64,000 bases of DNA from a virus, in IMG/VR virus record IMGVR_UViG_3300048848_000007, positions 6,411-70,410 of that record; one strand, 5' to 3'. This document shows, piece after piece, positions 316 through 63,915 of the stretch. Each line of letters opens with the position of its first letter. The first letter of the stretch is position 1. A program made the translations under genes and the position numbers. Under the pieces are notes generated by a model. It saw only the letters and a program-made list of their open reading frames with translations, ran no database searches and was not told the origin of the DNA.

Positions 316-963
316 ATGGGTAGTATGATCAAGCTGTTTGGCAACATCACCGCACACGGTGTCGAGTACAAACTCCCCGACAAACCCCCTTCTGAACTGG
401 TCTGGGTTGACCCCAAAGGCCATGTGAACTGCTGGTGCTCGGTACTGGGTGGCACATCCGGTTCCAGCTCCAGTCCTCGGACCGAGTTCCGTGAAACCAT
501 CAACGAGTTCTCCAGTGATAAATACAACTGGATCGTGGATGGCAAGACTACACATACCCTCGCAGGCACTGTCCGTGTCGAGCTGGCTCCGTCCAGTGGC
601 AAGGTCATCGTCGGTCAGATCCATGCCCACCTTGCTGGCAATCCATTCCTGATGGTGACCTGGTGGAACGGGTACATCCGTGTGGACATGCGCTTCAAGC
701 CTGATGGCGATGCCGTCAACGTACTCAAGCTGGCCTGCCCACTGAGCAAGTCCTTCAAGTACCTGATCACCATCAGCCCTGAAGGGATCATCCACATCAA
801 CCTGAACGGTGAAACCTTCACCACCAACGTGGACACAGCGTGGAAGGCTTGCCCCTTCTATTACAAGTTCGGTGCGTACTGCATCGACCATGAAGGTCCA
901 GCTGAAGAAGGTGCGTGGGTCGTCTACGAAGACTTTGCGGCGTTGCACGATGAAGCAGCTTAA
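316..963 (+). CDS. Polysaccharide lyase family 7 (alginate lyase-like)
   Basis: Has the three PL7 signature regions in order: SPRTEFRE, GQIHAH and YYKFGAY. No signal peptide seen. Confidence 0.85.
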   Translation: MGSMIKLFGNITAHGVEYKLPDKPPSELVWVDPKGHVNCWCSVLGGTSGSSSSPRTEFRETINEFSSDKYNWIVDGKTTHTLAGTVRVELAPSSGKVIVGQIHAHLAGNPFLMVTWWNGYIRVDMRFKPDGDAVNVLKLACPLSKSFKYLITISPEGIIHINLNGETFTTNVDTAWKACPFYYKFGAYCIDHEGPAEEGAWVVYEDFAALHDEAA

Positions 964-1219
964 CCAAGGGCAGCGGTTCACAACCGATCCCTTGGAGGCG
1001 ATTCGCACGGCGTTCCACGTGGAACAATCCGATGTTGGTCTGACCCAAGGCATGTACTTGGGCCAGCACGACTACACCTTTCAGGCCGACGACGTAGGCC
1101 GTTTGGTCGAGGTTGTTCAAGACATGTCCCCCGGATTTCTTTCGTGGGGGTTTGGGTCTGTGTTTGCAGACCTGCGTCAGCAATACCCCGATCCCAAACC
1201 TTATGTAGTCGAGGTATGA
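950..1219 (+). CDS. Hypothetical protein (89 aa)
   Basis: ATG at 950 (MKQLNQ...) overlaps the end of the lyase gene; trimmed from the 809 ORF. Confidence 0.65.
   Translation: MKQLNQGQRFTTDPLEAIRTAFHVEQSDVGLTQGMYLGQHDYTFQADDVGRLVEVVQDMSPGFLSWGFGSVFADLRQQYPDPKPYVVEV
1011..1026. promoter_or_regulatory. parS: parS-like centromere site (CGTTCCACGTGGAACA)
   Basis: Perfect 14-bp palindrome GTTCCACGTGGAAC, matching the bacterial chromosomal parS consensus. Lies inside a CDS. Confidence 0.7.
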
Positions 1220-1222
1220 CCC

Positions 1223-1597
1223 ATGTCGCTGTTCCCCTTGGTTCCCGATGACCTGATTGAGCGTAGGAATCAAATCCTCCTGCGTATCCATCGGTTCGTT
1301 GAAGTACGGGACTTAGGCTTCGTCTTGGACGATAAGCCCAGCCCCTGCCACATCTGGACTGGTGGCGATTCTGGCAACGGTCGAGGCGGTGGCTATGGCC
1401 GTGTCTCCATCAATGGGGAAACAGCGGCTGTTCACCGTGTCGTCTACACCCATTTCTATGGGTATGTCCCTACAAAGAAACAGATCGATCACAAGTGCAA
1501 CAACCGCTTGTGCTGCAATCCTGCCCATCTTGAGATGGTCAGCCATCTCAAGAATCAGCGGCTCCGTGCGAAGCGAGCCAGGGAAACCAGAGCATGA
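1223..1597 (+). CDS. HNH endonuclease
   Basis: VHRVVY...IDHKCNNRLCCNPAHL...N motif. Confidence 0.9.
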   Translation: MSLFPLVPDDLIERRNQILLRIHRFVEVRDLGFVLDDKPSPCHIWTGGDSGNGRGGGYGRVSINGETAAVHRVVYTHFYGYVPTKKQIDHKCNNRLCCNPAHLEMVSHLKNQRLRAKRARETRA

Positions 1598-62416: not shown

Positions 62417-63089
62417 CGACTTGTGCCTCTACTTCATAAATACGTTGGCCTGCAATCTCCTTGGTGCCGACACCGTTGTCAATCAGTTCACGTTGTTTGG
62501 CGGCCATGTCCTTCAGCAGATCACGCATCTCGTTCATGCCGGAAGTTTCATTGAGGTTGATGCTGATACCCCCTGCCACTTCTTTAGGTTTAGCCAGATG
62601 GGTAAGGATGCTATTGGCTGCATCACTACGCACCTTCTCACTGACGGCGTTGTGCATCAGCTCGGCCTGCACGTTAATGGCTTCCTGATACAGCGGAGCA
62701 TTGGCAACCCAGACAGGAACAAGGCTCTGTTCCAGGATGGCGTTGACCAGCTTGCCCTTGTGGTACATGGCAGCGTGGGCCGAGATGTCTTTCTTGCTGG
62801 CTCCCCGTGCCATGAGTGCAGCCAGTCGCTGCGGGAAGACAGTGCCCCATGCATCCGTGGTGGAGTAGTTCAGCAACTTGAGACTGACGTAGGCCACAGC
62901 ATTCACGTAGTCCTCGGTCTTGTACTTGCCGTCAGTCATGACGCTGGCGTAGGTCACGAAGTTCTCACGCACAGCTTCGGCGATCAGAGGATCAGCCACG
63001 ATCCCGTTGATCTTGTCCACCAGTGCTTGGGTGACAGATCCTTTGAGGTTGGCAGGCACAGCCTTGGAAACTTCTTGGATGGTGAGCAT
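62403..63089 (-). CDS. Terminase small subunit (N4 gp69-like)
   Basis: ENFVTYASVM...EDYVNAVAYVS...SEKVRSDAANSILTHL; adjacent to terL. Confidence 0.8.
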   Translation of the reverse strand: MLTIQEVSKAVPANLKGSVTQALVDKINGIVADPLIAEAVRENFVTYASVMTDGKYKTEDYVNAVAYVSLKLLNYSTTDAWGTVFPQRLAALMARGASKKDISAHAAMYHKGKLVNAILEQSLVPVWVANAPLYQEAINVQAELMHNAVSEKVRSDAANSILTHLAKPKEVAGGISINLNETSGMNEMRDLLKDMAAKQRELIDNGVGTKEIAGQRIYEVEAQVGGIN

Positions 63090-63150
63090 GGCTCTCTCCT
63101 ATTTAGGTTGGAGGGAGCCTTCTCTTTATAGGCTCCCCCACATGATCTGG

Positions 63151-63915
63151 TTACAGAGGTGCGTACCGCATGGCACGACGGTTCAGCACATTGAGGTAAT
63201 CGAGCATGTGTTCCAGTTGTTCACGCAGCTCTTGTTGTTCTTCTGGAGTCAGCTTGCCCATGACACCAGCTGCATCGTTCACCATCATGCTGAGCTTGAG
63301 TGTCTTCTCAGTCAGGTAGTCTTTCTCTTGAAGCAACCTGTCTACGAAGTTCTCCGGGGTGTGACGAATCGAAGTGCAGTACGCCTTCTCAAACACAGCT
63401 CGTGGGGACCAGCTCACATAGCCGGTATGACCCTCGACATTCGGGGCACCACCATTGGCATCTTCCACCAGGTAGCCATTGTCCTCGCCGTTCTCATCGG
63501 CAGGCAGCTCCCAGCCACGGTACTTGTTGTAGTCGCCACGGGTCATGGCTATTGCATGGATCACCTTGGTTCCGAGGTACGTCACAGGGGAACCAAGGGA
63601 AACAATCTTCCCGCTCGGCTTGCCTGCCTTCTGGATTAGGTGCAGCTGCTTCTTTAGCTCGAAGCCCAGCAGGGGCCAGACTTTCTTCATGGCATCTTCC
63701 TTTGCCAAGCGACGACCGATCTCTTCATTGAAGTTCTCGGGGCTGGCACAGGCCGACTCACCAGTGAGCTTGGTCCCGGTGTACAGGGTCAGGATGCAGA
63801 TAGTCAGCGTCCCGTCGATAACGAACTTCTCACCGATGATGGCGGAGTCCACATCTTCCTTGGTCACCCGAGGTGCTACGGCAACAGACTGCAATTCTTG
63901 TTCGGTCACGCTCAT
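63151..63915 (-). CDS. Three-domain protein: Gp49/Sf6 gp66-family domain + YxGTK domain + crAss001_48-like helical domain (putative anti-defence sponge fusion)
   Basis: aa 1-92 PRVT...GESACASPENFNEEIGRRLA; aa 113-180 YLGTK...MTRGDYN.YRGW...GYLV...YVSWSPRAVFEKAY; aa 189-250 FVDRLLQEKD.L...L.EQL.HM.DYL.VL.RR. Confidence 0.72.
   Translation of the reverse strand: MSVTEQELQSVAVAPRVTKEDVDSAIIGEKFVIDGTLTICILTLYTGTKLTGESACASPENFNEEIGRRLAKEDAMKKVWPLLGFELKKQLHLIQKAGKPSGKIVSLGSPVTYLGTKVIHAIAMTRGDYNKYRGWELPADENGEDNGYLVEDANGGAPNVEGHTGYVSWSPRAVFEKAYCTSIRHTPENFVDRLLQEKDYLTEKTLKLSMMVNDAAGVMGKLTPEEQQELREQLEHMLDYLNVLNRRAMRYAPL

Follow-up and report, generated by a model that had tools for sequence, protein, structure and literature searches.

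Several phage- and plasmid-encoded primases, namely gp4 of T7, RepB' of RSF1010 and ORF904 of pRN1, read a short non-palindromic word, and primase sites in general lie on both strands at roughly the spacing of Okazaki fragments; both properties are shared by the word described here. Other known systems resemble it as well. The nick sites of T5, phiKMV-like phages and phage tf follow a short consensus that recurs ~5-20 times in a virulent phage genome, for the most part on the same strand, Chi and KOPS sequences are also over-represented and orientation-biased, and the promoters of T7-like RNA polymerases (including RNAPII of N4) show the same ~20 co-oriented copies and a G-rich stretch after the conserved block. 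A literature search found no relevant description of the word itself.

Using exact counts, AACCAAGGG was found 14 times on the + strand and 3 times on the - strand of the window (i.e., the whole stretch of 64,000 nt that was analysed), and AACCAACGG 6 times and once, respectively. Dinucleotide shuffles gave both-strand expectations of 0.52 and 0.38 for these two words, and none of 100 shuffles matched the observed counts. The 14 and 6 + strand sites listed in the original prediction were all exact on recount, but its "about 2" - strand copies of AACCAAGGG are in fact three (1235, 40030 and the overlooked 34536), and the single - strand copy of AACCAACGG (2766) had not been listed. Moreover, the full word G-AACCAA-S-GG-R spans 11 letters and is longer than first noted: of the 20 + copies that the window contains, 18 are preceded by G and 19 are followed by a purine. 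Single-base variants of the core are all rare (at most one + copy each), the last two G positions excepted. Across the 75.2-kb genome, the 10-letter core GAACCAASGG occurs 19 times on the + strand and 4 times on the - strand. The copies found in the window, together with two genes needed below, are the following, Arace01 and Zuri being the relatives used for comparison.

962..970, + strand: copy TAACCAAGGGC, the weakest match, with neither the 5' G nor the 3' purine; overlaps the stop of the + gene 316-963
4867..4875, + strand: copy within the + gene 4181-5233, read T-K-G; the Arace01 equivalent is AAACCAAGGA
8386..8394, + strand: copy in a small + ORF, 35 nt ahead of its stop, read N-Q-G
11913..11921, + strand: copy within the rIIA-like gene 11313-13772 (N-Q-G); missing at the aligned Arace01 and Zuri sites
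12861..12869, + strand: copy in the rIIA-like gene 11313-13772; its 5' neighbour is C, not G
16562..16570, + strand: copy, C variant; the TGA stop of gene 16089-16562 contributes its 5' GA, and 11 nt downstream, ahead of the helicase gene, comes an intrinsic terminator (hairpin 16581-16600 with a T run)
19150..19158, + strand: copy, C variant, within the DNA polymerase gene 18448-21093; absent in Arace01 and Zuri
19975..19983, + strand: copy within the DNA polymerase gene 18448-21093; absent in Arace01 and Zuri
22014..22022, + strand: copy overlapping the TGA stop of gene 21427-22014, with the exonuclease gene 52 nt on; the aligned Arace01 site is identical
24844..24852, + strand: copy, C variant, within the helicase-primase gene; the Arace01 equivalent is GAACCAACCG
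30992..31000, + strand: copy antisense to the virion RNA polymerase gene; kept in Arace01
33029..33037, + strand: copy antisense to the virion RNA polymerase gene; kept in Arace01
37938..37946, + strand: copy antisense to the virion RNA polymerase gene; not kept in Arace01
44760..44768, + strand: intergenic copy flanked by two late (-) genes; occupies the loop of a GGCCCC...GGGGCC hairpin, a terminator as read on the - strand; kept in Arace01
45462..45470, + strand: copy antisense to the gp55-like late gene 44793-45479 at its 5' end; kept in Arace01 and Zuri
47654..47662, + strand: copy, C variant, antisense to the late gene 46746-47954; kept in Arace01
53391..53399, + strand: copy, C variant, antisense to the late gene 53126-53758; kept in Zuri, one mismatch in Arace01
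59801..59809, + strand: copy, C variant, antisense to the late gene 59703-60113
61083..61091, + strand: copy antisense to the large terminase gene 60827-62416; kept in Zuri, one mismatch in Arace01
63591..63599, + strand: copy antisense to the late gene 63151-63915; kept in Arace01
1235..1243, - strand: minority-strand copy antisense to the HNH gene at its 5' end
2766..2774, - strand: minority-strand copy, C variant, antisense to the + gene 2242-3018
34536..34544, - strand: minority-strand copy, sense, within the virion RNA polymerase gene (N-Q-G); kept in Arace01
40030..40038, - strand: minority-strand copy, sense, within the late gene 38956-40617
23059..25221, + strand: helicase-primase of N4 dns/gp43 type (720 aa), the candidate reader
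1223..1597, + strand: HNH_3 endonuclease gene (Pfam), the nicking enzyme proposed in the original prediction

Read along the coding strand, the word gives AAC-CAA-GGG (Asn-Gln-Gly) almost every time, and the null models themselves lean slightly towards the + strand, as could be expected if the usage of codons, dicodons or amino acids had given rise to it as a by-product. However, the three coding-aware nulls give far too few copies: for GAACCAASGG in the 75.2-kb genome, 3.8+/0.3- were expected under a synonymous-codon shuffle, 3.2+/0.15- under a codon-order shuffle and 3.6+/0.4- under a dicodon Markov model, against the 19+/4- observed, and no simulation exceeded 8 + copies. Note that about three of the + copies in these nulls are non-coding or stop-overlapping copies that were never shuffled. 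In addition, copies stand in sense, in three antisense frames, over stop codons and in intergenic positions. Such a by-product has next to no probability, and an artefact of codon usage is ruled out by all three nulls, as first argued; enrichment and skew both remained under the codon and dicodon models, under which loss of the signal had been set beforehand as the refuting outcome. A tie to phage tRNAs was considered since the word reads AAC-CAA and both Arace01 and Zuri carry tRNA-Asn(GTT) and tRNA-Gln(TTG), but it was dropped because no tRNA gene was found in the window and half of the copies are antisense.

The polarity does not depend on gene strand either, since GAACCAASGG is distributed 10+/2- and 9+/2- in the + coded and - coded halves, respectively, in agreement with the early claim. 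The + bias is uniform along 5-kb bins in five genomes and the orientation switches nowhere; the word is not concentrated near the genome ends, and no pattern was seen in word positions near the ends of N4, Zuri and LUZ7. Compared with Arace01, 8 of the 18 alignable copies are fully conserved, which is about four-fold the local background of 0.117 (P=5e-4), while left-half copies turn over by changes at several bases with their number maintained. The conserved stretch covers 11-15 letters and its conservation fades toward the 3' side. These results support the view that selection maintains the word as an oriented signal at the DNA level, beyond codon bias.

On a larger scale, GAACCA is enriched in the genome on both strands, with 77+/58- against 40/34 under the synonymous-shuffle null (1.7-1.9x), i.e., a density of ~1 per kb per strand. 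The same null gives 52/40 for the 130+/90- copies of GAACCA in N4 and 38/23 for the 102+/55- copies of AAACCA in LUZ7, and 49 metagenomic N4-like loci together hold 1021+/657- copies of GAACCA. Longer words are found in these relatives too, as N4 has 35 + copies of GAACCAGT and LUZ7 has a polar word of its own, GAAACCAG (21+/5-). G-AACCAA-S-GG-R is thus the long, high-specificity form taken, in the clade of the window phage, Arace01 and Zuri, by a shorter word of the N4 family (Schitoviridae), GAACCA-purine (AAACCA in LUZ7), which is over-used on both strands and leans to the strand on which the early and middle genes are coded. The extension differs between these phages, being A-S-GG in the window phage, T/G-G-R in Zuri and G-T in N4, with AAACCAG in LUZ7. 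Phages with the same core infect E. coli and several Pseudomonas species, in addition to the metagenomic N4-like loci. It should be noticed that the original prediction had not recognised the word as a clade-specific extension of a family-wide one.

This distribution bears directly on two of the mechanisms proposed at first. A signal of the Chi or KOPS kind, recognised by a translocase or nuclease of the host (RecBCD, AddAB or FtsK type), would also be over-represented and strand-skewed, but Chi and KOPS are host-read and flip at the origin or terminus, whereas the word tracks the phage family, with the same core in phages of E. coli, of Pseudomonas and in metagenomic relatives, and never flips or gathers near the ends. 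It is also unlike the known Chi and KOPS sequences of E. coli or Pseudomonas, and we regard such a signal as extremely unlikely. Programmed single-strand nicks in virion DNA, of the type known from T5 and Pseudomonas phage tf, would fit a short consensus with tens of copies mostly on one strand, and the HNH_3 gene at 1223-1597, to which they had been attributed, has homologues in Arace01, Zuri and N4. However, LUZ7 has its polar word with no homologue of this HNH gene, and the - strand holds 4-5 long and 58 GAACCA copies, above the null expectation, so that, unlike nick sites, copies lie on both strands; the word is also shared with N4. To our knowledge, no nicks have been reported in decades of study of N4 DNA despite its 35 + copies, and a literature search found no paper tying N4-like phages to localised nicks. 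The nick reading is therefore weak and in our view very unlikely. Overall, the oriented selected signal of the original prediction stood, T5-like nicks and a Chi/KOPS role became unlikely, and primase sites fit best among the mechanisms it listed.

Indeed, primase sites are the best fit because a core of 6-7 letters is enriched on both strands, evenly spaced, and because this core is common to relatives of unrelated hosts, all of which encode the same helicase-primase. The + copies are spaced more evenly than random, whether the hexamer (CV 0.73, P=0.001) or the 9-mer (CV 0.58, P=0.005) is considered. The identity of the core in phages of different hosts indicates a phage-encoded reader, and its enrichment on both strands favours replication since replication uses both strands and middle-stage transcription does not. 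We tentatively propose, as a possible rather than a probable reading, that the word is a recognition or start site for the helicase-primase of the family; from these observations we infer both the reading enzyme and the template strand. Accepting this proposal, a conserved phage-encoded enzyme, in the first place the helicase-primase of N4 dns/gp43 type, would read the word as the place where RNA starts, and the sites would serve as priming sites in discontinuous DNA synthesis, the strong ones being one-stranded because most forks would run one way through the genome or concatemer. Two options may be considered for the template. Either 5'-TGGTTC-3' on the - strand would be copied into a primer with (G)AACCA at its beginning, or recognition of the + strand word would take place beside the start point, which would imply the opposite fork direction. 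The first may be compared with T7 gp4, which uses the template 5'-(G/T)(G/T)GTC-3' for the primers pppACCC, ACCA and ACAC, as the complement of TGGTTC begins with (G)AACCA and resembles the ACCA primer. The fading of conservation toward the 3' side is as expected if the product starts at the left edge. At four-fold sites, five genomes show a polar C and A excess on the + strand, as if the - strand were the lagging-strand template, a pattern confounded by middle versus late codon usage.

The candidate enzyme itself, a hallmark protein of the family, has a suitable composition. Its N-terminal part matches DUF3987, a helicase family (Pfam), and its C-terminal half has an AEP primase fold and a PriCT-1 helical domain. 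A sequence search against solved structures gave no match for this protein, while a fold search with its C-terminal half pointed to the PrimPol of S-2L (E 2.8e-4) and to RepB', the site-specific primase of RSF1010 (E 5e-3), so that the AEP-fold primase with its helical PriCT-1 domain matches RepB' in fold. A tblastn search with the primase, meant to find it in phages that lack RNAPII and so to separate the primase reading from one based on RNAPII, gave 472 hits, all but one N4-like, the exception being a weak hit in a Leptospira phage. The architecture of the homologous N4 dns has been described (PMC4889955).

There are also differences from the known primases. RepB' reads hairpin initiator sites, whereas no hairpin accompanies the word. 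With 7-11 specified letters instead of 3-5, the word goes, in its 11-letter form, far beyond the need of any characterised primase site that we know of (T7, T4 and pRN1). T7 served as a positive control, and its known primase words were hardly enriched or skewed, which neither supports nor refutes the primase reading but contrasts with the strong genome-wide enrichment and polarity observed here; there is therefore no precedent in T7, the best-known case, for genome-wide selection of primase sites. In addition, the short-only form is symmetric in the genome (58+/54-) and the long form is not (19+/4-), which makes two different readers possible and counts against the primase reading. On the other hand, a single reader is simpler because on both strands the long and short forms share the left edge and the purine after GAACCA.

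The main rival, unlikely in our estimation, is that the sites are start sites (promoters) of the heterodimeric T7-like RNAPII, directed rightward over the whole + strand, also antisense to the late genes; such transcription could aid genome entry or keep the late genes silent. Promoters of T7-like polymerases look alike, with ~20 co-oriented copies of a word of 11-16 letters, and the minimal promoter of N4 RNAPII is reported to extend only from -7 to +2 (PMC4496689), which fits seven conserved letters followed by S-G-G. Middle transcripts of LUZ7 and LIT1 span the whole Watson strand, including antisense to late genes (PMC9163698), and N4 genome entry completes only once the middle transcription machinery has been made (PMC4496689). 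The placement of the left-half copies speaks both ways, since 5 of 11 are at gene ends, as promoters could be, but the other 6 lie deep inside long genes; many copies in the genome are deep in genes or antisense to late genes, unlike T7-like promoters, and the copy at 16562 stands just upstream of its intrinsic terminator. Moreover, the promoters mapped in relatives differ from the word, being AT-rich with a T start in N4 (PMC4496689) and GC-rich hairpins in LUZ7 (PMC9163698), and GAACCA is absent from the intergenic spacers of the N4 middle region. A search of N4 spacers for an RNAPII promoter gave AACTATCT (5+/0-), too few copies to settle the matter, and no recurring spacer word stood out in the same search of the window phage. 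Finally, the core and 4-5 long-form copies are enriched on the - strand too, a strand that in LUZ7 is transcribed only late and by the host polymerase (PMC9163698).

It is likewise rather improbable that the word is the binding site of another phage protein or a + strand RNA signal (e.g., a helicase-loading or recombination site, a terminase/packaging cue or a signal in rightward middle transcripts). Its sharp, conserved and polar character would suit such a reader, middle RNA spans the whole + strand in relatives (PMC9163698), and the word contains a Shine-Dalgarno-like AAGGGG, with a few copies 7-9 nt before start codons (one in the genome immediately beyond the window, and Arace01 27620). 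However, the majority of copies either lie far from any start codon or run antisense to genes, a signal restricted to + transcripts does not fit a core enriched on both strands, and no result points to a specific candidate protein.

Altogether, N4-family phages probably carry a genome-wide start signal for one of their own RNA-synthesising enzymes, maintained by selection, with a family-wide core and longer versions evolved in individual clades. N4-like phages, which are abundant and find use in phage therapy work, have served as a transcription model for 50 years, and yet their primase specificity, their replication direction and, outside N4, their middle promoters are poorly known. The word provides a direct handle on these questions, as it predicts the template for primase or RNAPII assays and the places of RNA 5' ends or Okazaki starts, and it is a simple signature to recognise and orient N4-like contigs in metagenomes. 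Should the helicase-primase read the word, no replicative primase of higher sequence specificity would be known, and the polarity of the word would show essentially one-directional replication in these phages; should RNAPII read it, the middle promoters sought for so long would have been located, among them antisense ones driving genome entry.

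The window spans positions 6411-70410 of a 75,312-base contig, the genome of an N4-like phage (Schitoviridae). The closest record is Arace01, a Pseudomonas phage, with about 77% DNA identity across the gene for the virion RNA polymerase and 93% identity between the capsid proteins; Zuri is second. The contig begins and ends with the same 127 bases, representing either a circular-assembly overlap or a piece of a terminal repeat. The + strand carries the early and middle genes, and the - strand carries the virion RNA polymerase and structural genes.

This genome contains a signal that is real, conserved and strand-polar. 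On recount, all coordinates of the original prediction were exact: AACCAAGGG has the 14 + copies reported and three - copies (1235, 34536 and 40030), of which 34536 had been overlooked, and the six + copies of AACCAACGG are likewise borne out, with one - copy (2766) absent from the earlier list. Dinucleotide shuffles predict 0.52 and 0.38 copies, respectively, both strands summed. The motif is therefore genuine, but its reported length was too short, as a flanking G and purine belong to the word. Indeed, of the window's 20 + copies, 18 have a G on the 5′ side and 19 a purine on the 3′ side; no bases are conserved upstream of the G, and single-base variants of the core (GAACCAASGG) are nearly missing. 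Thus, the signal is a sharp word, G-AACCAA-S-GG-R(A), at least 11 letters long, whose left edge is abrupt. Three more downstream positions weakly favour A. In the whole genome, the core occurs 19 times on the + strand and 4 times on the - strand (19+/4-), and the + copies are more evenly spaced than random.

A coding artefact was ruled out, since three coding-aware nulls remain far below these counts (note that 3 of the null + copies are non-coding or stop-overlapping copies, exempt from every shuffle).

Copies of GAACCAASGG under coding-aware nulls
Synonymous codons shuffled within genes: + strand 3.8, - strand 0.3
Codon order shuffled: + strand 3.2, - strand 0.15
Genes simulated from a dicodon Markov chain: + strand 3.6, - strand 0.4

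Codon bias is thus insufficient, as first argued, the signal having outlived the codon and dicodon nulls that the original prediction had itself named for its refutation. Copies lie in sense, in antisense in all three frames, over TGA stop codons and in intergenic regions, and the sense copies nearly all spell Asn-Gln-Gly. The polarity indeed does not flip between the coding halves (10+/2- where genes are + coded, 9+/2- where they are - coded). Genes for tRNA-Asn(GTT) and tRNA-Gln(TTG), matching the in-frame codon pair AAC-CAA, occur in Arace01 (L002:2127-2280) and Zuri (L006:1380-1614); no tRNA genes were found within the window.

Eight of the 18 alignable copies are letter-for-letter identical in Arace01, for a conservation probability of 0.117 among neighbouring 10-mers (P=5e-4), and the reverse comparison from Arace01 gave 8 of 13 copies conserved (P=1.4e-5). 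Right-half copies mostly keep their position, and three right-half copies are kept in Zuri as well; left-half copies turn over by several base changes apiece, a similar number being maintained per genome. Some copies occupy particular settings:

44745-44775, + strand: intergenic copy within a hairpin loop (stem GGCCCC...GGGGCC), with a T run after the hairpin on the - strand
Genome 74352-74372 (just beyond the window): + copy near a start codon
Arace01 L001:27620-27640: + copy near a start codon

The hairpin element is terminator-like for a late gene on the - strand and is kept whole in Arace01. In a minority of copies only, the word ends 7-9 nt before a start codon, and the AAGGGG of some + copies is a possible ribosome-binding site.

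The long word is a clade-specific version of an N4-like family-wide word, apparently undescribed; a literature search for its description found no paper. GAACCAASGG is the most frequent 10-mer in Arace01 (10+/3-), Zuri has GAACCAA (71+/40-) and GAACCAATGG (10+/1-), N4 has GAACCAG as its most frequent 7-mer (69+/41-) together with GAACCAGT (35+/13-), and LUZ7 has AAACCA (102+/55-) and GAAACCAG (21+/5-). The enrichment thus extends to relatives under a codon-preserving null, the related words being 2-3-fold over synonymous-shuffle nulls on both strands. Across 49 metagenomic N4-like loci (945 kb in all, strand set by primase gene orientation), GAACCA counts 1021+/657-, for a random hexamer expectation of ~230 per strand, and the + bias is even along every genome examined. 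In the source genome, GAACCA without the AGGG/ACGG extension counts 58+/54-, and the entire + excess sits in the extended form; the genome therefore has two forms of the word, a short one that is symmetric and a long one that is polar, with the left edge and next purine in common.

Because the core is identical in phages of unrelated hosts, its reader is probably phage-encoded. A host-read signal of the Chi or KOPS type, as once proposed, does not fit, since the word tracks the phage family and its orientation never switches. The family hallmarks acting on nucleic acid sequence-dependently are two phage RNA polymerases and the helicase-primase:

23059-25221: helicase-primase (DUF3987 helicase region, PriCT-1 domain)

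Its N4 homologue, dns, is described as a helicase that carries a primase domain at its C-terminus and is essential for replication (Kazlauskas et al., PMC4889955). When modelled here (mean pLDDT 79), the C-terminal half gave matches to two enzymes: the PrimPol of cyanophage S-2L and RepB', a site-specific primase from a plasmid. This candidate would read the word as a replication signal, which is favoured by the both-strand enrichment, the even spacing, the minority-strand copies and the common left edge of the long and short forms; hence, we tentatively consider the word a candidate primase site, giving this somewhat less than an even chance. At four-fold degenerate sites, the + strand of 5/5 N4-like genomes shows polar skews, with C exceeding G and A exceeding T (both gene strands averaged); these are confounded by middle/late codon usage and may reflect one-way replication or a codon-usage difference between middle and late genes. 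With the same confounding, the C/A excess fits the - strand as lagging-strand template; the template strand is not deducible from polarity alone. As a T7 control showed, enrichment is not a necessary property of known primase sites, so the primase reading is without precedent for such a genomic footprint, and a specificity of 11 letters is unusually high for primases generally.

The main rival, which we judge rather unlikely, is a candidate promoter for RNAPII, the phage's second RNA polymerase. About 20 co-oriented copies of a sharp word are promoter-like, RNAPII of N4 is reportedly satisfied by -7 to +2 alone and N4 genome entry finishes only once the middle machinery is made (PMC4496689), and the middle transcripts of LUZ7 and LIT1 run rightward genome-wide, antisense to late genes included (PMC9163698). 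However, the mapped promoters are unlike the word, being AT-rich with a T start in N4 (PMC4496689) and GC-rich hairpins in LUZ7 (PMC9163698), GAACCA was not found in N4 middle-region spacers, the - strand enrichment would be left without explanation, and the copy at 16562 lies only 11 bases upstream of the last of these elements:

10426-10439, + strand: intrinsic terminator (GC hairpin and T run) between middle genes
11237-11260, + strand: intrinsic terminator (GC hairpin and T run) between middle genes
16581-16600, + strand: intrinsic terminator (GC hairpin and T run) between middle genes

In N4 itself, AACTATCT occurs 5+/0- (L003:538-2578, 6893, 11717), with three copies in early-region spacers directly after terminator-like hairpins, and could be a promoter-like element.

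A signal for another phage protein, or one acting at the RNA level, appears similarly improbable. The HNH gene at 1223, from which programmed nicks had been proposed, is genuine and has homologues in Arace01, Zuri and N4, yet nick sites are a poor fit: no HNH homologue was found in LUZ7, which has a polar word nonetheless, and copies lie on both strands. A literature search for nicks in N4-like phages found no linking paper. The little probability left over is shared by nick sites, host-read signals and an artefact. Altogether, the exact sequences and positions of the word are now at hand for simple biochemical and sequencing tests.
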